In this document: positions 2,593 to 56,323 of the stretch, piece after piece
Layout: each line of letters begins with the position of its first letter
How positions within the stretch are numbered: the first letter of the stretch is position 1
Assembly (NCBI GenBank): GCA_001577715.1
Contig: LQAA01000069.1
Location: 3,703 to 67,702, forward strand
Direction of reading: 5' to 3'
DNA length: 64,000 bases
From: Candidatus Adiutrix intracellularis
GTDB taxonomy: Bacteria > Desulfobacterota > Desulfarculia > Adiutricales > Adiutricaceae
The notes under the pieces: generated by a model
Databases searched by the model: none
Seen by the model: only the letters and a program-made list of their open reading frames with translations
Told to the model about the DNA's origin: nothing
Program-made: the position numbers and the translations under genes

Positions 2593-2689
2593 AGTAAGCC
2601 TCCCTTTCTTTTCAAAATGATCGACTTAATTTATCTAAAAAAGTATTATATCACAGCCGGAGCTAGCAGAGACAACTTTATAGGACAAA

Positions 2690-3852
2690 ACGATAAGACA
2701 ATCAAACTCTTCTACCTCATCACCCTAGGCTATGCCAGAAATCTAGTGGATATCGAACGCTTTTCCGCTTTAGCCACCCGTAACCTAGGTCTAACCCTCA
2801 CTACCAATCAGGAAGTGACTGCCCTCAATGTATTTAGCACTTGCACCTTTCTTCAAACCACAGTAGAAACTGTACAGACTTTGAAACCCAGGCCGTAACT
2901 CTTCCTGAAACTTTCACCCACAACCCTAGCCCGCCCCAGGTTTACCGCAGAAAGACAGCCAGTCGGAGGCCACCGGCCCGGAATACCTTTTTTTCGAGCC
3001 TTTTTGAAAATAGCTAAGGGCTGCAACAACCGCTACGCCTATTACCCCCTCCCTCACTGAGAAGATCTCTAGTGATCCCCCTCCTCCTATAACAGTTAGT
3101 AACCGAGGTAGAAGAACTAGCCGCTACCGACGTACGTGAACTGACCCTAATGTACAGAAATTAACTATCTATGGCCGCAACCGAGGCGCGTCCGAAGCGC
3201 TAACTGCTCTACTTAAAAACTTAAACCAATTGCCAAGCTTAAAGACTAAGAACTAAATCTAACCGCTCAGGCCCTGGCAGAAGCTTATAATATTTACTAT
3301 CTTTTTAAAATAAGGAGCTCTATTTTATAGTATATAAAACTTCCATAATACACAAAGAGCGAATCAATATCATCTATAAAATAATCTCCGACGATGGCCA
3401 GAACGAACAAGAACTACCCTTTAACTTTTTAGTAATGAGCGACTTTACCCAAACTGAAACCAGGAAGTCAGGCAAGGTTCCATTAACGAGTACAATTCCA
3501 CTAACGCTACTCAAGATAACTTTGATTCAGTTCTCAAAAACTAAAAACTGAAGCTAACTCTACTCAGAGACGATACCCTTAATAGCGAAAACGAAGGGAT
3601 AATATCTCTAACTATTGAATTAATCTAACTAATTTATGTTCGAAAGCTTCTTTAACTTAGAACTAAAGCTAAAGAACACCTATCCTTATTATAACTGGTA
3701 TTTTTTTAAAGCTTAAGTAAACAACAATAAAAATAAAGCTATAGCAAAATATATTACACTAGCCCTTAAGCTTCGCTTTCTCAAAAAAGATAAGAGTTCA
3801 GACATTATCACTTTGTTAGCATACTCACTCAGGCGACCAAGGAATTATCTTG
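2690..3852 (+). pseudogene. rimO: RimO (ribosomal protein S12 methylthiotransferase) pseudogene
   Basis: LITLGYARNLVDIE...STCTFL matches the UPF0004 N-terminus (SLGCxKNLVDSE...NTCxFI). AFLKIAKGCNNRYAYYPLP is the eroded radical-SAM CxxxCxxC region; EVEELAATDVRELTL follows. Multiple stops and frameshifts. Confidence 0.8.
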
Positions 3853-3878
3853 ACAATATAGTGGAATATTAATAAACT
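3850..3878 (+). promoter_or_regulatory. sigma70 promoter of tRNA-Arg
   Basis: TTGACA (3850-3855), 17 bp, TAAACT (3873-3878), 12 bp before the tRNA. Confidence 0.65.
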
Positions 3879-3890
3879 AAACTAGATTAT

Positions 3891-3967
<77 letters not shown>

Positions 3968-3975
3968 ATTAAATT

Positions 3976-4013
3976 AAGGGCTTCACAGAATAAATTTGGA
4001 GCCCTTGTTTTTT
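3976..4013 (+). terminator. Intrinsic terminator after tRNA-Arg
   Basis: AAGGGCTTC...GGAGCCCTT hairpin followed by GTTTTTT. Confidence 0.6.
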
Positions 4014-4047
4014 GGTAAATTAATTCAACTAGTCACATAATAAACTA

Positions 4048-4346
4048 AATATTAGTTAAAAATAATGTAATATTTAAATTTTTATAATGATACTATTTTT
4101 CTATAATAAAATTATATAGCTATAATATTAATTTATTAAAAAATAGATTCCTTTACTCCCCATTATGTTAATCAAGTTCCTAAAATATTACTCAATTTTT
4201 TGGTTAGTTAGAAAAAATTAACAAAAAATAATTTATTCTTACAAATAATTACAATACTTTATAAAAAGCACCCCTTTAGGTACGATTTTAAATTTATTTA
4301 GTAAGTAAAAAAATTAAATCGTGAAACTCCTCCCGACGAATGCATA
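4048..4346 (+). mobile_element. MITE family copy 1 (~300 bp)
   Basis: Shares the core AAAATAGATTCCTTTACTCCCCATTATGTTAATCAA...TAGGTACGATTTTA with five other loci; right end CCGACGAATGCA; eroded flanking duplication TAATA(AA)CTA/TAATACTA. Confidence 0.75.
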
Positions 4347-4373
4347 ATATACTAAAAATAAATTGGTCTTAAA

Positions 4374-5698
4374 CTAAACTTCCAGCGATTTTTTGCTGAA
4401 ATATGCTAAAATTAATAGTAAAGTATCTATTATTCTAATACATACCTTTATAAATAATACTTTTCTATTAACTTATATCAAATGTTATATTATTATTCGG
4501 TCGTACACACAGATCCAATACTAACTCGTGGTTAACCTCCAGCTATTCCCCTACAAGAATCGTACTGAGAAAACGGAAGGGCTAAAAAGGAACCCTGGCC
4601 AACTTTTCCTGCCTTGTTTCTGATACAATCTATTTGATTAAATGCAACACCAAAGGGAATCTTCCGTTTCAGCCACGGAATCTTTCTTTATCATTTAATT
4701 AAAACTCATAGTCACATTCAGATTATTATAACGCCATGAAAAAATTTAGACCACCAAATTTTATTTCCTCCAAATTAAACCCTAAGTGAGATTTAACCTT
4801 GACTATAATAGTCGCACGCATTATTTCTTCCAAAAATAAATTGGTGACACCCACTCCTCAAGATATATCGAAGGCAGATATCATCCTTTAGCCTAATCTA
4901 GTTACAGCCGCAACAAAAAACAATGTTGGTTCCTAAAAATATTAAAATTATAAAAGTTAAAAAATACCGCTTAGATTACCGTCTTGTATTTAACCGCAGT
5001 TTACGGATTAATTGAAAGTAAAAATCTACAACTGAGTCTTTTCCATGAAAAAAATACTTTAATTTTAAAATTAAAGACAACAGTTTCCTCTTTTCTCGAG
5101 AGGATAAAAGCATTGTAACGGAAGCTATTCTTAATGATATCTATATTATCAAAACTTCGATTACTTCGAAAAAAAATAAGCGTCACCGACTGCGTTTACA
5201 ACTACAAATAATCATCATAAATGGAACGAACCTTCTGTACGGTAAAAACTATCGGAAAAAAATTAGACCACTTTATTGCTATACAGAATCGAGAGTTCAG
5301 ACGCATTTATTTTTGTACGTGTTGGCCTGTTATATTGAATAACACATGCATAAAACCTGGAAAAAATTAACTTTTACCACTAAAGAATTAGTTTAAAAAA
5401 ATCCGCACCCCCATAGCACTAGTGCAAAGCTTAGACAGTACCAAACAAAAAGGACTATGAAGAATTAATTCCAGCTTCTCACCTTCGCAAATATTTTAAC
5501 CAACCTTGCCAGCATCGGCTTCAATATATTTTAAGCACTCTTTAACACGCAAAATACCAACTAAGAACTTTTTACTTTTAACACCACGACCTAACCCTCG
5601 CTTTGATTATAAAAAGTTCTCGATCTGATTCAAATTAAAAATCCTGCCCCTTAAAAATACATTTAATTTAGTATATCGAAGAATGAAAGTTTAAGTTA
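4374..5698 (+). mobile_element. IS1634-family relic with internally deleted, fragmented transposase
   Basis: PPAIPLQESY*ENG..TLANFS (N-terminus), DLTLTIIVARII, LQLSLFHE, DIYIIKTS, ERTFCTVK, RVQTHLFLYVLACYIE*HM. Left end TAAACTAAACTTCCAGCGATT resembles the reverse complement of the right end at 62695-62714. Confidence 0.85.
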
Positions 5699-5849
5699 AC
5701 CAAAAATAATTTTCTCTCTATATCACCGCAATATCTCAAAATATATTTTTCACACAACCAATCCTATTTTCCTCACGAATAATTCTCAATTATATTTTTA
5801 AGCCCGCCATCTTGAACCCCAAGTTCTTAGACCAATACTTTACAAATAA

Positions 5850-6330
5850 TTTGATAAATTTATTAAAAGGCTTTATTGACTTGAGTAAAGCCAATCTACT
5901 AAAAATATATTTAAGGGAAACGCCAGTTAAAGAGATTGATTCCGTATGGCGAAACTAAATGAAGTCAATCTCAACGGCATCAATCTCCATATGGTTATCT
6001 TGGCAAAACCAATTTACAGAAAAATAATCTTGATCGAACTAACCTCACCTGAGTCAATCTTAATAGGGTTAATCCTAATAGATCTCATTTTACTGGAGTC
6101 AATTTAAGCGGAGCAATACTCTTTTTAGTTTAAAAGTTTATTATATTTTATCGAAAGATATCTGGCTATAAATATTGAGGAATATGCTAATCTTTCATCT
6201 AAATCTCAAACACTTTATAAAGCGAAGTTATCACCGACTCCCAAAAATAAATTAGAAACAAAATATCCAAGTCTTTTTTTACCGAAGCCAACTAACTATC
6301 AGCTTTTATCGGAGCTACAGGAAGCGCCAG
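5850..6330 (+). pseudogene. Pentapeptide-repeat protein pseudogene
   Basis: LSKANL..LNEVNLNGINL..TNLT*VNLNRVN..GVNLSGAIL repeats plus a TLYKAKL..KYPSLF tail; stops and frameshifts. Confidence 0.7.
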
Positions 6331-6367
6331 ATAAAAATAAATGAACGACGCGTGATAACTATCCAAC

Positions 6368-21130: not shown

Positions 21131-21899
21131 TTATTAGGTATCTCCCTATCAATATCGCCGGCCAAGACTAGCGATCTTATATATAATTAGCGAATTCTTT
21201 ATCCTGCAACATAATACAACCTTTGAGTCGGCCCACCATCAGTTTATTTATAACTATGGTTACCACGAGCTTGTATCTAAAAACTGAGTATTCGTTTTTC
21301 CTAACCTTAGAATCTATTGGTAAAGGCAATGTGAAGCTGTTTGTAGGCGACGGCTTTGGGGTAATGACTGGTGTATTAGAATATTTATTCATCTGAAAAG
21401 TGCTTAATCACATAACCACCCAAAAAATTCAGGGTGGCAGAAATACGATCATTTTTGCTACGTTCCAGAAGAATGTCAGCCTGACGAAAAACTTTTTGTG
21501 CTATTCATCTATCTTGGGCACACCCGTTTCTAAATTAACGTTTCATAACATAGCGAAACTTCCTTTAGCTTAAATATTGAACTAAACATATCTCCGGACG
21601 GCAGTTAAAGCAAAGCCAGCAGTGAAACTAAAACAATTATTAACCGGACGGCGATCCAAACCACCTTCATTAATTTTTTATTATACCTAAAATAGCGGGA
21701 CGGGGCAACGACCGATCTTTACGGCCCCAAATAATTTAATCTGCCCTTCTACAATACAACTATACTCACGCATGAACATTTAAAAAACTGGGGATTACGA
21801 ATAAAAATGGCGACTACAACAACGGATTGACACAAAATTAAATTGAAATTACTGAGCGATAAGAATAAAATAACAATAATTAGATAGTAATGCGCATAA

Positions 21900-22620
21900 T
21901 ACCTTAAAAAAGTAAATAACTCTCGCATCTATAAGGCGAAACCTATCCTACACGATATTTTATCCGTAGTTCTGTAACTCCACATACTGCGCATTAAATT
22001 AAGGAATATCAAATTCCTCATATTGAATATTCCCCAGAGACAGAAACGCTTTGACGTGAACTACGAAATTGACGGGGCGGAGCTAGTAAAGGTCGAAATG
22101 TAGTCTGGGGTAATACGCGACGCTAATACCGGTAACGCACACGTCAATCTGAAGAATTACTCTATTTTTATTTATACGGTTTATATTCTTCACAAGATAA
22201 CGGAGGAATACGCTATACAGACTGTTTCGCAACTTTAACGTAACTTTAATTCCCCGCGCATGAGGATTTTTTAACCCGCTTTAATCTTCCGAAACGCAAA
22301 AGATGAAGCACTTTCGGATACTATCGACATTATTTTCATCGAACTTTTAAAGTTCAGAAAAATATTAAAGACGCCATGGAGCTAAAGGGCTCCTATGAAA
22401 ATATAGAATATTTTCTTCGCAGCAAATGGCAGACCGAAATACAGAGAAGTATTGGAAAAAATAATTCATGCAAGAAAAGAAACAAAAATAGCTAGTATAT
22501 TATTGGCAGGTATCAGCAGTGACCTGGAACAGATAGATTAGGATCACGTAATATATTGAGAAAGAGAAACATGAGTTTACCCGAAAGTTTATCAGACGGA
22601 ACAGACCGATAGGTGAAAAC
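21900..22620 (+). pseudogene. Rpn-family (PD-(D/E)xK_2) nuclease/transposase-like pseudogene
   Basis: KRFDVN..VKVEM* (D..D..E-M-Q motif), NLKNYSI.YL..L.SSQ, LSDTIDIIFIEL, IASILLAGIS.D; frameshifted. Confidence 0.7.
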
Positions 22621-22915
22621 ATAAAAAAATACAAAATTATCCCCCTCTGAAATCGAAAGATTACAACGTGGTTAACCGGAATAACTGTTTCTACCGCTCC
22701 ATCAATTATCTCTCCATAAAAATATTGAAAGTAATGGTCGCGTATCCACTCTTAAACAACTCAATCGTTGATTAAGTCTTCAAGCTATTTTTATAATTAA
22801 TAACCCTCAAATTAAGCGAATATTTTTAAACGGACGTCTGCGACGAAATATTTTCAGTCCCCTCCATTTGAACGCGGTGGCTGCCCCCAAAAAAAATATC
22901 CGCCTGAACTGAACC

Positions 22916-24171
22916 CTACGATTCTAATCTTGTTATATTTTATATTTAATCTATCGAAACATACTTGAATTTATATTAAATTATATTAAAATATACCCAC
23001 GAGCCATTTGAAGAAAAATATATTCTTGCCTTGGGAGCAGGCTGAAGAAGCACCAGGTAAACATTTCGGTCAAAATACTCATTATTCCATATCTAACACA
23101 TACTTAGCTGAATTTTCTGTTTTTTTATATGGAATTCTTCCTTTCTGACTCACCAACGCACTCTTCAAGGACTGTATAGTCGTCCCAATTTACAAACTCT
23201 TTTTCAAAGCGTATAAATTCCTATAAAATACATTATCGAAATTGCTCTACAAAAAAATATTCCGACGGTGACATAGAGTGCTTTCACAGACTTTTAGTAG
23301 TAGCCTTTGTCACACTGGGCTAAAATATAGACCTGCCCCTAGCTCTAGAATTTATAATCCCGCAAGATATAGGTATAAAAAATAAAACTGCGAATAAAAA
23401 ACTACTGCGCGCTGATTGGATAAATAGACTTTAAAAGTTAAAGAACTGCGCCCCATATTTATTGGGTAATAACCTTTATACTCACCAACCATTCCACAAA
23501 AAATTTTTAATTCTGAGTTTAGATTTATCTTTACCTGTAACTATTCTAGCCACAAGACTTTACAAGAGTATTTTTCTGGAGTTAAGCTGGACGGCTTATC
23601 TTTAGGTAAGCTCATTCTAAGCAAAAACCGAATAAAACATCAGGATAATTAGTTAGAATAAATTTTAATTCGCAATAATGAAATTTCTTTGAATGGCAAC
23701 TGAATCCATCTTTAAATAGCAAATTCCGCCGATAAAATAAAGTCTTTGATCTGTAACTTCATTACCGACTTTAAATCTTCCAAACACAACATTGAAAGTT
23801 TACTCAGATACGCTAATAGTTAGTGGAAAAGAAAAAATAAAACCTCTAACTTCTTAAAAAATAACAGCTACCTTTTGAAGTATAAATTCAGATACGAAAA
23901 AAAATCCTCGCCGCACTCCTGGTAGTATTTATTTTACCGACCTTCATCATACATAGCGTTTGCTAGTTGATCAAAATACTATGGCAGAAAGCGCAAAATA
24001 GTTTCAATACTAAAAGCCATCTCTTCATTAATTCTTGATCCATCATAATGTATCACCTCTTCACCTCCCAGGATGCGCTCCTTAAGACTATCATATCAGG
24101 CATCCCAGCATCACAAATACGCTAATCTAATCTTCATTCTTAATCATATAACCTTAGAATGAGAATTATTA
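22916..24171 (+). mobile_element. ISNCY-type IS relic A with both ends
   Basis: FLTHQR..NLQTLF, LPLALEFIIPQD, homology to 48740-49704. Left 70 bp is homologous to 36107-36180. Right IR TTAGAATGAGAATTATTA. Confidence 0.8.
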
Positions 24172-24189
24172 TAATTACAAGAATAGGGC

Positions 24190-24218
24190 TTTAAGAATTA
24201 AAAATAAAATGATAAAAT
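24190..24218 (+). promoter_or_regulatory. sigma70 promoter of ahcY
   Basis: TTTAAG, 17 bp, TAAAAT with extended TG; predicted start site coincides with the riboswitch 5' end. Confidence 0.55.
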
Positions 24219-24225
24219 AAATCTT

Positions 24226-24299
24226 TTCGTGAGGGAGTGCTGCAAAAAAATAAATCTTTTCAGGCTCGTATAATAACGGCACTCACTATTTTGGGAGTG
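24226..24299 (+). promoter_or_regulatory. SAH riboswitch with SD-sequestering hairpin
   Basis: GAGGGAGTGCTGC...CAGGCTCG...AACGGCACTCA matches the SAH riboswitch consensus; lies directly upstream of ahcY. Confidence 0.8.
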
Positions 24300-24306
24300 T
24301 AACTAA

Positions 24307-38542: not shown

Positions 38543-39949
38543 ATGCCCAATGAGCATAATAATATTTTAGGCGATCAGACCCCCTCCAGCCTGGAAGCGG
38601 AAGAAGCCCTTTTGGGAGCCATCCTGCTTGATTCCCCCATCGCCTTACCCACCGCTCTGGAAACTGGTCTCAAAGAAGACGATTTTTTCAAAAAAGCCCA
38701 TGCCGAAATATTCAACGTTTTTATTCAACTTGATAAAGAAAACCAACCGGTGGATCAAGTAACTGTAGGGGAGGCTCTTAAAGGGCGGGGGGCTCTGGAA
38801 AGGTGCGGTGGGCCAACTTTCCTAGCAAAGCTCTACGACGGTTCGGGTATCGCCGCTCATGTGGCCCGTTACGCCCGCATCATAATTGACCGAGCCATTC
38901 TCCGGCGTCTGATTAGCATCTCGACTTCCATCTCCGAATCCTGCCATGGATCCCCTCCCAATGTGGATGAGTTACTAGATCGAGCCGAGATAGCTATTTT
39001 AGAGGTCAGGTCAAATCGTAGCAATTCCAGCGGTTTTTCAAGTGTTTCAAGTGAGATGGAGCGCACTTTTACATCTTTAATGGATCTCAGAATAAAAAAT
39101 AAAGATGGCCAAGGTCTTACCGGCATCTCTTCCGGATTTAAGGATTTAGATGAACTGACCGGCGGGTTTCAGCCTTCCGATCTCATAATTCTGGCCGGCC
39201 GGCCAGGCATGGGTAAAACCGCTATGGGTCTGAATCTAGCTTTAAATGCGGCCATTCCTAACCAGAGACAATTTTACCGCCAACTCCCCGCCGTATCCGT
39301 GGCTATCTTCAGCCTGGAGATGGGCCGCGACCAACTTCTCCAACGCCTCATCTGTCAAGTGGGTGGTTTTAATTTGAAAAAATTGCGTACCGGCGATATT
39401 CAAAACGACGACATCCCCCGCCTAACCGGAGCCATCAGCTATCTGGAAAAAGCCCAGATTTTCATCGATGATACCGCTGCCATCTCAGTCATGGAACTCC
39501 GAGCCAAGGCTCGCCGGCTTAAAACTAATCTTATGAAAAAAGGTTCCGATTTGAGCCTAATCATGGTTGATTATCTCCAGCTCATGCGTAGTAGTGACCG
39601 CGCCGACAACCGAGAACAAGAGATCAGCGAAATAAGCCGCTCCCTTAAAGGTCTAGCTAAAGAACTGAAACTACCCATTCTAGCCCTTTCTCAGTTGAAT
39701 CGCCGAATAGAAGAGCGCACAGATAAAAAACCCCAACTCTCTGATCTACGCGAATCCGGGGCCATAGAACAGGACGCCGACCTCATCACTTTCATCTTCC
39801 GCCCCGGTTTATACAAAAAAGATGACGAAACTCTCCGCGGCCAAGCTGAACTCACCATCGGCAAACATCGCAACGGACCTACCGGAAAGATAGACCTCTA
39901 CTTCAAAGAAGAATTTTCCACTTTCCAACCGGTGGACAAAAAGTCGTAA
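38543..39949 (+). CDS. dnaB: Replicative DNA helicase
   Basis: AGRPGMGKT, FSLEM, VDYLQLM, LSQLNR, DLRESGAIEQDAD, KHRNGPTG; no intein. Confidence 0.98.
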   Translation: MPNEHNNILGDQTPSSLEAEEALLGAILLDSPIALPTALETGLKEDDFFKKAHAEIFNVFIQLDKENQPVDQVTVGEALKGRGALERCGGPTFLAKLYDGSGIAAHVARYARIIIDRAILRRLISISTSISESCHGSPPNVDELLDRAEIAILEVRSNRSNSSGFSSVSSEMERTFTSLMDLRIKNKDGQGLTGISSGFKDLDELTGGFQPSDLIILAGRPGMGKTAMGLNLALNAAIPNQRQFYRQLPAVSVAIFSLEMGRDQLLQRLICQVGGFNLKKLRTGDIQNDDIPRLTGAISYLEKAQIFIDDTAAISVMELRAKARRLKTNLMKKGSDLSLIMVDYLQLMRSSDRADNREQEISEISRSLKGLAKELKLPILALSQLNRRIEERTDKKPQLSDLRESGAIEQDADLITFIFRPGLYKKDDETLRGQAELTIGKHRNGPTGKIDLYFKEEFSTFQPVDKKS

Positions 39950-39955
39950 CCTCGA

Positions 39956-41641
39956 TTAACGGCTTCGTTGTAGTTCGCCAGCAGCCCAGACGGCTAGCTG
40001 TTCTCGATTAATCTTAGCGTTATGGCGCACATCCACCGGTAAAGCCCGGTGCTTAAGGAAAGTATTTATACTAAGTGTGTGGGGGTTAGCTTTAGCCAAA
40101 GCCGCTAGTTCGGTGGTAAGGGCTACCCAGTCCCTGGGCCGAAAAGCCAGGTTAGGTTCAATAATGATGATAGGCTTTTGGTGCCCAGATGGGCCCACAC
40201 CCACTAGAGCCGAACGCCGAACCTGGAAGTGGTTATTGAAGATTATCTCGCAGGGAATGCTAAACAGGATACCCTGCCCAGTAACAACCCGATGGGCTTT
40301 CCGGCCACAGAACCACAGGCGACCAACGTCGTCAATCCAGCCGACATCACCCATGCGCCGCCAGAACTTGCCTTCTTCTGACTCCATTCCAGCCCCAGCC
40401 GCCGGAATAATGGAACAAGCCGTATCCTGAGGCCGGTTAAAATAACTTCGACTGACCATTGGACCCTGGACTATAATTTCACCAATTTCACCATTGGGCA
40501 GTTTTAAAGCCTCGGTAAAGCAGCTAATGGGCTCGTCACTTATTTTAATGACGGCCAATTTAACGCCAGCCAGAGGGCGACCTACGCATATACCGAAGCC
40601 CTGTTCAGTCATAAGTTTAGTTTCGTTTAAAATTTCTATAGCATCAATACACGACAAAGGTACGCCCTCGGTGGCGCCATATGGAGTTAAAAGTTTGGCT
40701 CCCGGGCTCATCAAAGCGGTAAAGGCGGCCACGGCTTGCGGAGAAACTGGGGCTCCGGCAGAAATAACCAGTTTCAAAGTTGGCAACACCAGACGGTGCT
40801 CGTGACCGAAGTCAGCCAGTTTGCCCAGAAGAGTGGGTGAAGCAAAGAGGCTGGTCACCTGGTGCCGGATAATAGGTTCAACCAACTGCCTAGGGTCGGC
40901 CCGACTGGGACGACTAGGATCAAAACCCGGAATAACTGAGGTTAGGCCCAGGACCGAGGCAAAAAGACCAAAAGGGGGAAAGGTTGCCAAATCCACCCCC
41001 CCTTCAGCCAAATCAAACCCTTGGCTGATAGCTTCAACCTGGGCCGCGAACATGGCATGGGTATAGATAACTCCCTTAGCCGGACCGGTAGAACCGGAAG
41101 TAAAGAGAATCGCCGCAGGTTGATCCGGACAAGGGGGTACTGGTATTAATTTTCCGGTTTGATCGGGACTGAGCTGTTTCAGTATTTCCGCTAAAGTTGA
41201 CCCTCCCCAACCCCACTTGCGGCCAACAGTCACCCGCATTTTTAGACCCTGAGAAATTTTCGGGATAAAAAAACTCAAAAGATGAGCCCGAGTGAGACCT
41301 GCCAAGCCTGAAGGCTGAATCTCAGCCAAGCAACGCAGCGTCATTTTTAAACCCATGCCGGGATCTACCAGCACTAAGGGCAACCCGGCCTTAAACAAAC
41401 CGAACACTATGATGACAAAATCAATCCCCGGCTTGGTCATAACCAGAACACGAGAGCCGGGCAAAAAACCGGAACTAATTAAATGGATGGCCAGACGGGA
41501 AGAGCCTTCATCCAATTCCCGAAAACTAACTTTGATACGGCCCAAAACGTCCGGCTGGTTTTCAGCGATGATTGCCAGTTTATCCGGCCATTTCTGAGCA
41601 GCTTCCACCAGCTTCTCGGCAATATTAAAACTTGGATTCAT
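39956..41641 (-). CDS. oleC: OleC-type olefin beta-lactone synthetase (AMP-forming ligase)
   Basis: FTSGSTGPAKG, TPYGATE, RMGDVG, WFCGRKAHRV and the OleC-type C-terminal PVDVRHNAKI. Start at ATG 41641 overlaps the oleB stop (TAATG). Confidence 0.8.
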   Translation of the reverse strand: MNPSFNIAEKLVEAAQKWPDKLAIIAENQPDVLGRIKVSFRELDEGSSRLAIHLISSGFLPGSRVLVMTKPGIDFVIIVFGLFKAGLPLVLVDPGMGLKMTLRCLAEIQPSGLAGLTRAHLLSFFIPKISQGLKMRVTVGRKWGWGGSTLAEILKQLSPDQTGKLIPVPPCPDQPAAILFTSGSTGPAKGVIYTHAMFAAQVEAISQGFDLAEGGVDLATFPPFGLFASVLGLTSVIPGFDPSRPSRADPRQLVEPIIRHQVTSLFASPTLLGKLADFGHEHRLVLPTLKLVISAGAPVSPQAVAAFTALMSPGAKLLTPYGATEGVPLSCIDAIEILNETKLMTEQGFGICVGRPLAGVKLAVIKISDEPISCFTEALKLPNGEIGEIIVQGPMVSRSYFNRPQDTACSIIPAAGAGMESEEGKFWRRMGDVGWIDDVGRLWFCGRKAHRVVTGQGILFSIPCEIIFNNHFQVRRSALVGVGPSGHQKPIIIIEPNLAFRPRDWVALTTELAALAKANPHTLSINTFLKHRALPVDVRHNAKINREQLAVWAAGELQRSR

Positions 41642-42573
41642 TAAGTTAATCCGCCCAGAAAATTTTCCACAAAAGCAAAAGCGCGTTCCGGTTCGTCTTC
41701 TAAAAGATAGTGACCAGCCTCGGGCAGAATTAAAGTCTGAGCCTGGGGCAACCGTTCGCACCAATCAAAAAAAATCTGGCGATTAAAAACAAAATCCTGA
41801 AGACCCCACAAGAGGGCCAAAGGCTTATGGCTCAAAGCAATTGTGAAATTACAGTCGATTTGCCGCAAGCACTCGAAACTAGGGTGAGTGGTAGTCAAGG
41901 GAATATCTTCAATGAAGCGGGCTAAGGCTAAGCGATCTTTTGCTTGTGCGTAAGGAGCCAAGAAGCCGTGCCGAACAGCAGCGGTCAACCCCTTAACTGA
42001 GCCGAAGGCCGCTGTACCTCGGGCGAAATAGTTACAAGATTGGGCCACCAACCAATCGCCCAACAGGGCTAAGTATTTAAATAAGGCCAGCCTGAAAGGC
42101 AGACGATAACAGCTGGGAAATCGGAGCCCGGTGTTCAAAAGAGTGATTGAGGCTACCCGGTCCGGATTTTCCCCAGCCCAAGCCAGAGCGATAGGTCCGC
42201 CCCAATCGTGAACAATCAAATGAACCGGAGTTGAGAGCTGCCAATGATCCATAAGTAAGCCAAAATCACGGGCCCGGTCGACGAGGCGGAAGCCGTATTC
42301 AGTAGCCGTCGGCCGCGAAGAAAGACCCATCCCCAGATGATCCGGAGCCAAACAACGATAAGCGGGGGTTAGGCGCGCTATTAGCCGGCGATAGAAAAAT
42401 GACCAGGTAGGGTTGCCGTGAATTAAAACTACTGGTGGTCCAGCACCTTCATCCACATAATGAAGCTCCAAGCCATCCGGCCTGGGGTAATAATGAGACG
42501 CAAAGGGATATTCGGACAACTCAGGAGGCGGGGGGCGGTGACTACCCCCCGGACGCACCGATTTTTCATTCAT
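41641..42573 (-). CDS. oleB: OleB-type alpha/beta hydrolase (haloalkane-dehalogenase-like beta-lactone decarboxylase)
   Basis: HGNPTWSFFYR, APDHLGMGLS, VHDWGG nucleophile, WG..DFVF, AGHYLLED; directly upstream of oleC. Confidence 0.8.
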   Translation of the reverse strand: MNEKSVRPGGSHRPPPPELSEYPFASHYYPRPDGLELHYVDEGAGPPVVLIHGNPTWSFFYRRLIARLTPAYRCLAPDHLGMGLSSRPTATEYGFRLVDRARDFGLLMDHWQLSTPVHLIVHDWGGPIALAWAGENPDRVASITLLNTGLRFPSCYRLPFRLALFKYLALLGDWLVAQSCNYFARGTAAFGSVKGLTAAVRHGFLAPYAQAKDRLALARFIEDIPLTTTHPSFECLRQIDCNFTIALSHKPLALLWGLQDFVFNRQIFFDWCERLPQAQTLILPEAGHYLLEDEPERAFAFVENFLGGLT

Positions 42574-42676
42574 ACTTATCCACCTGTCTATTTTTTGACA
42601 CTCAACGTAATTGAAACTCCACTATATTACTTCTTTACATTATAAAGAACCCCCCGAAAATGCAAAGAACCTCGGT

Positions 42677-53396: not shown

Positions 53397-53559
53397 AATT
53401 GATATTCAGCCGGCGCGATCAGAACCTGCTCCGTCTGAAAAAACTCCTAACGGAACTCAGAACAGAGGAAGAAGTAGAATTTATTAATATAGTTAAGATA
53501 TATCTATTATCCTATCCTCTATCCTAGAAAAATCGGACTAGAATTCGACTCCGAGAGAG

Positions 53560-54085
53560 CAAACGGTGATCAAATCCCAACCGTCCCCTGGCAAAGAGAT
53601 TTGGGGATTAGAATCATTGGTTTAGTTTTAACCTAAGTTTTCTGCTAAACATATTAACCGGACGCGGGCCTTTATGAAAAACCGGCTGAAATAAATACCC
53701 CTAACCCTTCATCATCCCTACACGGCTAGATAATCTGGATCCGCCCAGACCCCTGGAGATTAACAACCCCCTTTAATTTTATACTTCCCGAAGCTGAGGC
53801 CGCCGAAAATTCGTAAAAACAAAACCAACTGCGGAAGATGATAATCAAACCACTATTTCAATAGTGGCCGAAAACAAAAGTCCTGCCACGGTTCAGACGA
53901 TAGCCGAAGATTAGGATTGTTTCGCCGCTCAAATGGTGATAACGGCCGGTAAAGATAAAGCTTAACATCGTCTAGATAAACTTAAAATCCAAAATTCCCC
54001 TACCTATACCTATTTTTACCACATTAACTCTAATTGTTTTCTGATCCGAATGAGCCGCTTTGCTACTAACTTAAAGTCCCATAAA
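53560..54085 (+). pseudogene. SPOR-domain protein pseudogene
   Basis: N-terminal GLVLT*VF segment and C-terminal FAAQM..A...DKLK...Y...FLIRMSRF resembling SPOR; follows argS; many stops. Confidence 0.45.
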
Positions 54086-54223
54086 TAAAAGTATGATAAT
54101 ATATTAATGTTAAGATAATAAAATTATATCGCTATAACAAAATCGTGTTCATCTAAATATCATTAACATATTAAATATTTTTAATACATCAACCAGCTTT
54201 AAATAAAGCTTTATTAATAATTA

Positions 54224-54491
54224 TACATCCATCAAACGCAAATTTATTTTTTTATTTTTCTAGTGATGCTAAAATATTATAATTATAGTGTTGATCTATT
54301 AAAATAGATTCCTTTACTCCCCATTATGTTAATCAAACTCCTAAAATACTAATCAATTTTTAATCAGTTAGAAAAATTTAACAAAAAATTATGTTATTAT
54401 TATATTTTATAATAAAAATGCTCTTTTAAGTATAATTTTAGATTTTTTTGATACATAAAAAATAATTATAAAATTCCCCCTAACGAATGTG
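54224..54491 (+). mobile_element. MITE family copy 5 (268 bp) with perfect 9-bp TSD
   Basis: TAATAATTA at 54215-54223 and 54492-54500; IRs TACATCCATCAA / CTAACGAATGTG; family core. Confidence 0.88.
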
Positions 54492-54611
54492 TAATAATTA
54501 TTGATTGAATCACCTACCTTAGTCTGGTGGTTTAAATAACTAATGATATAGTTTATCACTAAATAATCGATGCTACTTTATCTAATCTCATTTTATAATC
54601 TTCCACGGGGC

Positions 54612-56153
54612 GTATTTTTTACAGGTTAAAATTTACAAATTAGTAGTGAAGAATGGGCCTACTTTGTATAAAAAATTTGATAGCCTGGCGCAAAAATTAA
54701 AATAGAAAATACTTACTCATAGTACAAGTGATAATAACCGTCTAGATGCACTCTGATCAGTTACGCTCAACTTCAGAATAAGTTCCCTGAATGTCAACCC
54801 TGTTCAAAACCACAAAGCGAATGATTAGCTTGATTAAATTATTGGTAAGCTCAATTTCCAGGTTGACGATAAAGCACAAATTTGACTCGTAATCTTTACG
54901 GAAACGCCTAGTTAAATTCTTAGCTCCTTTTACCACCGGGACCTTGAGTTCTTATTTTATAAGCGTTCTCCACATTTTTGCAATTTATCATGGATAGTTA
55001 TATCGGCTTCCGTTCTAAACAAATATGATAAAACCGAAACAGGCCTCGTAATTATTCCAGAAGCCTTACCCTATAACTTCGAGTTTCCGAGCCCTGGTTT
55101 TCTGATAGAAATCGTGCGCCCTTAATGAACTGAACCAAACAAAATTAAGCCTGTGCCGGACAATTTTTTAAATACTTGTGATAGGCTGAATAGTAATCAC
55201 AGCTGAGCAATCCAATAAAATCTTTTCCCAAAACTAATTAAAGAACCTCTAACAATAGATGGGCCGATATTCTAAACATCACGAAAAAAAGCGGCTCAAA
55301 AAATCCAAGTCTAAAAATAATAACTATCTTCTTTATGTCCGATCCTGTCTGTATTTAACAAGACTATTCGGGTAGAGCCTCTAAACCATTTTCAGAAGGT
55401 GGCTTCAAATCAACGGAGATTTTCTTTGAGATATTAGTTATTTCTCTACGGCTGACAAGGCATCCCAATACTTCAGCTACAAAAGACTACACGAACAAGT
55501 ACGAAATATAGGTCTTACCTTTTAAAAAAACAAGACAAATAGCCAACTTCGGACCTATGAATCCAGTGTTACTAACTTTAGACAGTGTCTAGCAATGATA
55601 AATCTCTCCACAACGTTACAACAGCAAGTGGCTCCACAATATTCGGTAAGCCGCTAGAGATTAATAATTAGCCCATTTTATTATCATATGATGTCTTTAT
55701 CTTGTTCGGTAATTAACTCTCCATCGCAACCGCAGATTTCTAGCTCTAAAGCAAAGATTCTAACTTTATCAAGTTCTTCAAAAATAAAAAACCTACGCAA
55801 ATAGGACTCTTGCTCTAACTGCGCTCCAAACTTTACGCTTTTTACCGTGTTTCTTCTGTTGAAGGAAATTGCTAATATCAGACGATAATGACTTTGATAA
55901 ATTACTAGATTTCTTTCAAGCTCCAGCCAATTTAGTTTTTAGTTTGGTATCTTTATACCGTAAGGTAATATCTTCTACTCATAACAGAATGTTTCGTTAC
56001 ATAAAACTTCAAACACACATCCCAATTCGTCCAAATGCTAGAAAACTTAAAATATTATATCTTGCGATTTGCTTGATTCTATGATCACAACACGACATAC
56101 TTTTATGTTGACGTACAATTATATCTTATTTGATAATCACCGTGAACAGTTAA
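54612..56153 (-). mobile_element. IS66-family relic, near full length, transposase pseudogenised
   Basis: SSNLSKSLSSD, ICGCDGEL, C..CGEIYH, GPKL, SCDYYSAY, FCLVQFIK, TNN..K..IRFVVL.R..QGT.SE; ends TTAACTGTTCACGG and CCTGTAAAAAAATAC. Confidence 0.9.
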
Positions 56154-56323
56154 TATATTTTTTGAGATCCTAATTATACATTTAAATAGCGTTAGCCAAA
56201 ATAATAGGGTCTATTATCAAGCTGACTCCATAGAAACTATTATAATAAAAATATTTAAGCTTGGCCTAAGCGACCTCACCATGACCCGATTTCAAATTTA
56301 TCCCTGCCTCTGTCATTTCAATT

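Follow-up and report, generated by a model that had tools for sequence, protein, structure and literature searches.

A coupled oleB–oleC pair in Candidatus Adiutrix intracellularis as a probable part of a dispersed OleABCD olefin pathway

The stretch of DNA analyzed in the current study, hereafter referred to as the window, comprises 64,000 nucleotides (contig C69, positions 3703-67702) of the draft genome of Candidatus Adiutrix intracellularis (G000), which amounts to 2.08 Mb in 155 contigs with a GC content of 43%, and whose bearer is, going by the names of its relatives, most likely an intracellular symbiont of termite-gut flagellates. Two overlapping genes of the window, oleB and oleC, probably represent one of three scattered loci which jointly encode a complete OleABCD pathway for head-to-head olefin formation, oleA and oleD being located on two other contigs. 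A first-pass annotation of the window had described both genes as full length, with a set of catalytic motifs, a TAATG overlap, and mutL and dnaB on either side, all of which was confirmed in the sequence.

The oleB–oleC locus of the window

The locus itself consists of the following elements:

41641 to 42573, minus strand: oleB, encoding a predicted beta-lactone decarboxylase of 310 amino acids, a haloalkane-dehalogenase-like alpha/beta-hydrolase (Pfam, motifs and context)
39956 to 41641, minus strand: oleC, encoding an ANL-superfamily adenylating enzyme of 561 amino acids, a predicted olefin beta-lactone synthetase (NCBIfam and motifs)
41639 to 41643, minus strand: TAATG stop/start overlap of oleB and oleC, i.e., translational coupling (sequence reading)

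The oleC frame is open from position 41764; translation is taken to begin at an ATG (41641-41639) that overlaps with the TAA stop codon of oleB (41643-41641). The same TAATG overlap is found in L031, a metagenomic relative with 91% DNA identity, while a second close relative, L030, has an ATGA overlap instead. A Shine-Dalgarno-like GGTGGA precedes the oleB ATG (a pattern match only), and plus-strand open reading frames (ORFs) of 80-117 amino acids within oleC were set aside as antisense noise.

The naming of the two products as OleB and OleC, which the first-pass annotation had also proposed, is based on contrasts between model scores and on gene context, and is supported by scores, motifs and context alike. 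OleC exhibits the AMP-binding (ANL) fold (PF00501, 168 bits) and possesses the core adenylation motifs, with FTSGSTG at residue 180, YGATE at 321, GDVG at 431 and PVDVRHNAKI at 535. With 620 bits it exceeds the 478-bit threshold of PRK09274, the broad NCBIfam model for the ‘fatty acid CoA ligase family’. Its scores with the OleC-specific models are 3.5 times those reached with any model for acyl-CoA ligases, and the next non-Ole family stands at 146 bits. Homologues that are 46-48% identical bear the JGI name olefin beta-lactone synthetase. The activity predicted for OleC is ATP-dependent formation of a beta-lactone from a 2-alkyl-3-hydroxy acid.

OleB carries the motifs HGNP at residue 52, HDWGG at 122, DFVF at 260 and GHY at 287, the last three of which are retained in all ten aligned orthologues. 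It matches the Pfam family Abhydrolase_1 (PF00561, 100 bits) and can be aligned over its full length with structures of haloalkane dehalogenases; its top NCBIfam matches are likewise haloalkane dehalogenase models, all of them below cut-off (158 against 466 bits, and 142 against 241). OleB of X. campestris has itself been regarded as a subfamily-III haloalkane-dehalogenase-like enzyme (PMC10503415). Furthermore, a 47%-identical homologue bears the JGI name cis-3-alkyl-4-acyloxetan-2-one decarboxylase, which corresponds to the OleB activity, the protein is 36% identical to the OleB proteins encoded by two contiguous oleABCD clusters (L007 and L008), and oleB lies immediately upstream of oleC in 10 of 10 related loci.

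Three further elements surround the pair, of which the two genes lie outside the pathway:

42677 to 44521, minus strand: mutL, same-strand upstream neighbour (TIGR00585, 487 bits)
38543 to 39949, plus strand: dnaB, convergent downstream neighbour (TIGR00665, 498 bits)
42639 to 42666, minus strand: sigma-70-like promoter match, TTTGCA, a 16-nucleotide spacer and TATAAT (consensus scan, 10 of 12 matches; pattern only)

The promoter-like match sits inside the 103-bp spacer between mutL and oleB. The neighbourhood of mutL and oleB is also seen in L030 and L031, and these two are the only ones to share the placement of oleBC between mutL and dnaB, which is not seen in the other genus members examined. 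The stop codons of the convergent dnaB and oleC genes are 6 bp apart (39949-39956), and no terminator-like hairpin was seen between them, so that the dnaB and oleC transcripts would run into each other. Of note, in three relatives of the same genus a membrane protein of ~170 amino acids, with a weak match to DUF2269 (29 bits), is encoded directly upstream of oleB (L026:9137-9661, L001:8581-9081 and L002:978-1481); the copy of Ca. Adiutrix is intact and lies on another contig (G000:C81:5376-5882).

oleA, oleD and a Pfa-type synthase elsewhere in the genome

The first-pass annotation had noted that oleA and oleD are missing from the neighbourhood of oleBC, and indeed no OleA- or OleD-type gene is present in the window. 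A search of the whole genome for an OleA-type thiolase and an OleD reductase, which had been suggested as a check, returned one of each, on contigs C141 and C12, where the only β-ketoacyl-acyl carrier protein synthase III (KASIII)-like match and the only strong 3-beta-hydroxysteroid dehydrogenase-like match of the genome are located. The relevant genes are:

C141, 32312 to 33361: oleA, the only KASIII-type match in the genome
C12, 3591 to 4610: oleD, the only strong match in the genome to the 3-beta-hydroxysteroid dehydrogenase/short-chain dehydrogenase-reductase type (PF01073, 131 bits)
C12, 6561 to 13562 (L019:3561-10562), minus strand: PfaBC-like megasynthase of 2333 amino acids
C12, 4607 to 6556 (L019:1607-3556), minus strand: protein of 649 amino acids, membrane-anchored at the N-terminus, in which a DUF459/SGNH domain (176 bits) and a domain of the esterase type (79 bits) were recognized

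The KASIII-like protein scores 344 bits with the model PRK09258 (cut-off 285) and 66 bits with the fabH model TIGR00747 (cut-off 292). In a PDB search its best 12 matches, presumably all of them Xanthomonas OleA structures, scored 235-240 bits, as compared to 61 bits for the best FabH-type chain. It retains the residues aligned with those which we take to be Glu117, Cys143, His285 and Asn315 of the Xanthomonas enzyme. Moreover, its segment EPSTASIIQHRLDLGGHIKSLDIGNACL conforms to an OleA pattern from the literature, EPxx[AS]x(14,18)DxxNACL (PMC7158056), and the motifs HQVS and GNMGP are also present. Identification of this gene as fabH was ruled out by the model scores, the PDB scores and the OleA pattern. 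A canonical FabH, i.e., a protein exceeding the TIGR00747 cut-off, was found in none of the 11 genomes of the genus (11/11), and in most of these OleA is the sole KASIII-like gene product.

OleD possesses the motifs GGQGFLG and YPYSK, and the family that follows the OleD models in its search is HpnA, at 104 bits. Its gene is the last of a co-directional block on C12 in the order phosphopantetheinyl transferase, pfaD, pfaA, pfaBC, DUF459/esterase gene and oleD, and is coupled to the preceding gene by a 4-bp ATGA overlap. PfaD exceeds the cut-off of TIGR02814 (564 against 449 bits), PfaA displays a ketosynthase, four acyl carrier protein domains (recognized by four LGLDSI motifs) and a ketoreductase, and PfaBC has the arrangement KS-CLF-AT-DH2. 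The joint occurrence of PfaD, a multi-ACP PfaA, PfaBC and a phosphopantetheinyl transferase marks the C12 operon, as far as domain content tells, as a Pfa-type synthase for polyunsaturated fatty acids (PUFAs) or secondary lipids.

Two further observations concern this operon. The C-terminus of PfaBC is extended by an in-frame fusion to two XRE-type helix-turn-helix (HTH) domains (PF01381, 60 bits, residues ~2197-2328), and a PUFA-synthase subunit with such a DNA-binding tail is unusual. The tail is retained in G004, designated Deltaproteobacteria bacterium Smac51 in public records, a near-complete genome with a main contig of 4.48 Mb, where a single tblastn high-scoring segment pair reaches residue 2332; the PfaC proteins of L007 and L008 lack this tail. 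The DUF459/esterase gene, which is positioned between pfaBC and oleD and overlaps the latter, is also conserved in Smac51. Its product occupies the position of the PfaT thioesterase of marine bacteria and might act as a partner in acyl release or in the handling of lipids.

Distribution, layout and selection

The ole and pfa genes were traced in 41 genomes, i.e., that of Ca. Adiutrix, ten others of the same genus, 14 of the remaining family, nine of the order and seven of the class. Within this set oleC was detected in 27 genomes, oleA in 28, oleD in 25 and pfaD in 24, and all positives belong either to the family of the window (n=25) or to three genomes of one sister family; none of oleA, oleC, oleD or pfaD was found in the 13 remaining genomes of the order and class. 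Gaps in the ole set within the family are restricted to metagenome-assembled genomes (MAGs) that are 58-87% complete, pfaD being additionally missing from G015 (93%), and no family genome with at least 90% completeness has oleC without both oleA and oleD.

Throughout the family oleA, oleBC and oleD reside on separate contigs or, in Smac51, at 0.25, 1.27 and 2.69 Mb of a single 4.48-Mb contig. Smac51 keeps the block pfaA-pfaBC-DUF459/esterase-oleD, with pfaD just upstream, and pfaD and oleD are found ~16 kb apart on the same contig in Ca. Adiutrix and six further genomes of the genus. The sister family (G027, G029 and G033) has oleA next to oleD and oleBC apart from them, and the two distant MAG loci L007 and L008 exhibit a gapless pfaC-oleA-oleB-oleC-oleD order. 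The records of the latter two are titled ‘uncultured Klebsiella sp.’; such a cluster is unexpected in Klebsiella, and the taxonomic label looks doubtful.

By the canonical definition of an oleABCD cluster (genes that are contiguous or separated by no more than ~5 kb or six genes), the three contigs of Ca. Adiutrix do not hold one. The possibility that the three loci are in fact adjacent across contig breaks was rejected: oleBC is flanked by more than 21 kb on each side, oleA is located at 32 kb on a contig of 46 kb, and the suspicion is also contradicted by the split seen on one contig of Smac51. The three-locus split is old, stable and ancestral, and is not a by-product of genome erosion, since relatives whose genomes measure 3-4.7 Mb show the same layout.

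The mode of selection was assessed from the ratio of nonsynonymous to synonymous substitution rates (dN/dS), calculated by three methods against L031, which has the same mutL-oleB-oleC-dnaB order. Synonymous divergence is saturated against the 58-67%-identical relatives of the genus, partly owing to a shift in GC content at third codon positions (~0.5 versus 0.7), and the closer L030 and L031 were therefore used. The dN/dS values against L031 are 0.08-0.15 for oleB and 0.15-0.26 for oleC, as compared to 0.15-0.26 for mutL, 0.10-0.19 for an AI-2E permease and 0.03-0.04 for dnaB; for oleB against L030, computed on a codon alignment because of a 1-codon indel, they are 0.09-0.19. OleB matches 59 of the 61 alignment columns in which nine orthologues agree fully, and OleC 143 of the 148 in which ten do, which is no worse than in other genus members. 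Identities to genus relatives (OleB 56-62%, OleC 61-66%, OleA 67%, OleD 59% and PfaBC 65%) fall within the 43-81% spread of other orthologue pairs. The four ole genes are open, as are the pfa ORFs of 7 kb and 5.2 kb, the pfa ORFs amounting to ~17 kb in all. The ole genes are clearly maintained by purifying selection, and relaxed selection, which the first-pass annotation had named as a finding that would speak against its proposal, is not indicated, as oleB and oleC evolve in the range of the neighbouring mutL.

The surroundings present a different picture. ORFs of at least 100 amino acids cover 52% of the window, which is interrupted by low-GC gaps of 1-3.8 kb, the gaps at 2593-6351, 21131-24306 and 53397-56323 measuring 3-3.8 kb with 34-35% GC. 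Next to oleA, a pyruvate-kinase-like gene (G000:C141:30930-31868, minus strand) is a stop-riddled pseudogene, while its Smac51 orthologue is intact. The low ORF coverage, the gaps and this pseudogene fit an extensively pseudogenised genome, and the earlier statement that a decaying genome keeps oleBC thus holds, the two genes being intact and constrained.

A dispersed olefin pathway, its alternatives and known systems

In the pathway that is thereby proposed, OleA (C141) would join two long acyl chains head to head in a non-decarboxylative Claisen condensation, OleD (C12) would reduce the resulting beta-keto acid, OleC of the window would form the beta-lactone, and OleB of the window would decarboxylate this lactone to yield a cis-olefin. 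These steps are taken by homology with the characterized Xanthomonas and Shewanella enzymes (PMC6463001, PMC7064751, PMC7158056), and enzyme activities, substrate and product in Ca. Adiutrix are accordingly predicted ones. The translational coupling of oleB and oleC is in keeping with the known OleBCD complex, whose partners have to be supplied in balanced quantities. With regard to the acyl donors, the evidence tips somewhat towards polyunsaturated chains made by the Pfa synthase, in which case a long-chain hydrocarbon with several double bonds, of the C31:9 type, would be formed; this is favoured because oleD sits in the pfa operon and because the pfa and ole genes share a common phyletic pattern. 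An orphan OleBC pair with unknown substrates would thereby be recast as part of a complete, scattered Ole pathway tied to a Pfa synthase.

A number of observations weigh against this interpretation. OleC fails both OleC equivalog cut-offs (NF045786, 545 against 900 bits; NF045785, 507 against 850), and the families that match OleD best, the OleD models NF042422 (327 bits) and NF042423 (279 bits), are both below their cut-off of 580, so that OleC and OleD are, by these scores, divergent members of their families rather than strict equivalogs. No OleB-specific model was present among the NCBIfam results, and OleB is inseparable by sequence alone from other subfamily-III haloalkane-dehalogenase-like proteins, its assignment coming from gene context. 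The same-contig linkage of pfaD and oleD is confined to the genus, the two genes being on different contigs in other genera of the family, and acpP and fabF, which belong to a fatty acid synthase (FAS) of type II, are encoded at the extreme end of a contig (G000:C155:11466-12987). OleBCD complexes are normally produced from a single operon, and co-regulation of the three loci is assumed here; finally, the draft genome is 91.6% complete.

The fabF-acpP pair and the unlinked oleD and pfaD genes of other genera also lend themselves to an alternative that is unlikely, yet has to be taken seriously, namely that the pathway is complete and runs on ordinary type II FAS chains to give mono-unsaturated or saturated-chain olefins as in Xanthomonas, with the Pfa lipid as a separate product and oleD as a mere neighbour of the pfa genes; pfa and ole genes can indeed be unlinked (Shulse and Allen, PMC3098273). 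Evidence against it comes from the translational coupling of oleD into the pfa operon of Ca. Adiutrix, from its position ~16 kb from pfaD in six other genomes of the genus, from a phyletic pattern of pfaD in the family that is the same as that of the ole genes, and from the lack of a canonical FabH in all 11 genus genomes. Furthermore, Shewanella OleA takes only the Pfa-derived 16:4 chain despite the presence of FAS II (PMC6463001).

The remaining alternatives concern the role of the OleBC pair itself. Two possibilities had been put forward in the first-pass annotation, of which the presence of oleA and oleD elsewhere in the genome is borne out by C141 and C12, whereas a stand-alone OleBC acting on host substrates is disfavoured by the family-wide co-occurrence of oleA, oleBC, oleD and pfa. 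That OleBC should process beta-hydroxy acids or lactones of other, possibly host, origin without OleA and OleD is very improbable: the locus is physically apart from oleA and oleD and may have a promoter-like site of its own, but both partner genes are intact and strictly co-distributed with oleC over the 41 genomes, and the same separation in 3-4.7 Mb genomes is no mark of a host-dependent lifestyle. It is also scarcely to be expected that the pair has been misnamed and that its members are in reality a true haloalkane dehalogenase and an ordinary fatty-acyl-CoA ligase, neither of them involved in making olefins. Haloalkane dehalogenase models do top the NCBIfam results for OleB, many databases name its homologues so, and OleC clears only the cut-off of the broad ligase family; however, the dehalogenase models are far under their cut-offs, the OleC models lie 3.5 times above those for acyl-CoA ligases, the orthologues of L007 and L008 are embedded in a contiguous pfaC-oleA-oleB-oleC-oleD cluster, and oleA and oleD co-occur with the pair. 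Given the heavy pseudogenisation of the genome, the ole genes might be thought a decaying relic, intact in appearance and out of use, and this can be considered most unlikely in view of dN/dS values of 0.08-0.26, similar to those of neighbouring housekeeping genes, of the retention of nearly all family-invariant residues, and of four ole genes and ~17 kb of pfa ORFs that are still open.

A more far-reaching version of the dispersed Pfa-linked pathway is that Pfa and Ole together are not an accessory route to secondary lipids but form a core membrane-lipid pathway whose polyunsaturated hydrocarbon, or Pfa product, is indispensable inside the flagellate; the HTH domains of PfaBC would then link the amount of synthase to how strongly the scattered ole genes are transcribed. 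This proposal, which is suggested by the lack of a canonical FabH across the genus, is regarded as doubtful; if true, a core role would explain why ~22 kb of pfa and ole sequence has stayed intact at three loci amid decay. The maintenance of a costly hydrocarbon pathway by an obligate intracellular symbiont argues that bacterial membrane olefins matter even in a stable, anoxic niche within a host cell.

The link between Pfa and Ole, and its C31:9 product, which in Shewanella arises from 16:4 chains, are known from Shewanella and Geobacter bemidjiensis (PMC6463001, PMC3098273, PMC4882568), and ole genes have been noted to occur in varying configurations, either in linkage with pfa or at other positions (Shulse and Allen, PMC3098273). 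The dispersed pathway of Ca. Adiutrix closely recalls the Pfa-Ole systems of anaerobic Deltaproteobacteria such as G. bemidjiensis (C31:9), with which it shares the four Ole families, a Pfa synthase with a pfaBC fusion and pfaD, strictly anaerobic hosts of the former class Deltaproteobacteria and the expectation of a long-chain polyunsaturated hydrocarbon. It differs in that the ole genes are not in one tandem cluster but at three loci, of which the first holds only oleA, the second oleBC and the third oleD as the terminal gene of the pfa operon, in the DUF459/esterase gene between pfaBC and oleD, in the two HTH domains of PfaBC and in the eroded endosymbiont genome. The oleABCD and pfaABCDE genes of Shewanella oneidensis MR-1 and Photobacterium profundum display the same link, OleA taking the Pfa-bound chain and OleBCD finishing the olefin, and their pfa and ole operons are either adjacent or apart (PMC6463001); in contrast to Ca. 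Adiutrix, however, their oleABCD genes form one contiguous operon, and the Ca. Adiutrix proteins score moderately with the Shewanella-type models (OleC 507 against 850 bits, OleD 279 against 580).

Xanthomonas campestris OleABCD, the biochemical and structural reference, is approached by the OleA matches, by the Asp/His/Asp residues and HDWGG of OleB and by the ANL core motifs of OleC, while it differs in its use of FAS II acyl-CoAs, in its single gene cluster and in equivalog cut-offs that the Ca. Adiutrix proteins do not reach. The oleACD clusters for beta-lactones such as lipstatin and nocardiolactone (PMC7064751) share with the pathway proposed here the reactions of OleA, OleC and OleD that lead to the beta-lactone; they are without oleB and release the lactone, whereas in Ca. 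Adiutrix oleB is present and coupled to oleC. Published ole surveys demand clustering, within a six-gene window (PMC7064751) or within ±5 kb (PMC7158056), and such surveys would miss the whole termite- and cockroach-gut lineage because its ole genes are split family-wide. Pfa-linked ole genes in anaerobic Deltaproteobacteria are thus already known, and what is particular to the present case is the three-locus layout across a whole family of gut symbionts, the incorporation of oleD into the pfa operon in this genus, and the fact that purifying selection still preserves these genes while the endosymbiont genome around them erodes.

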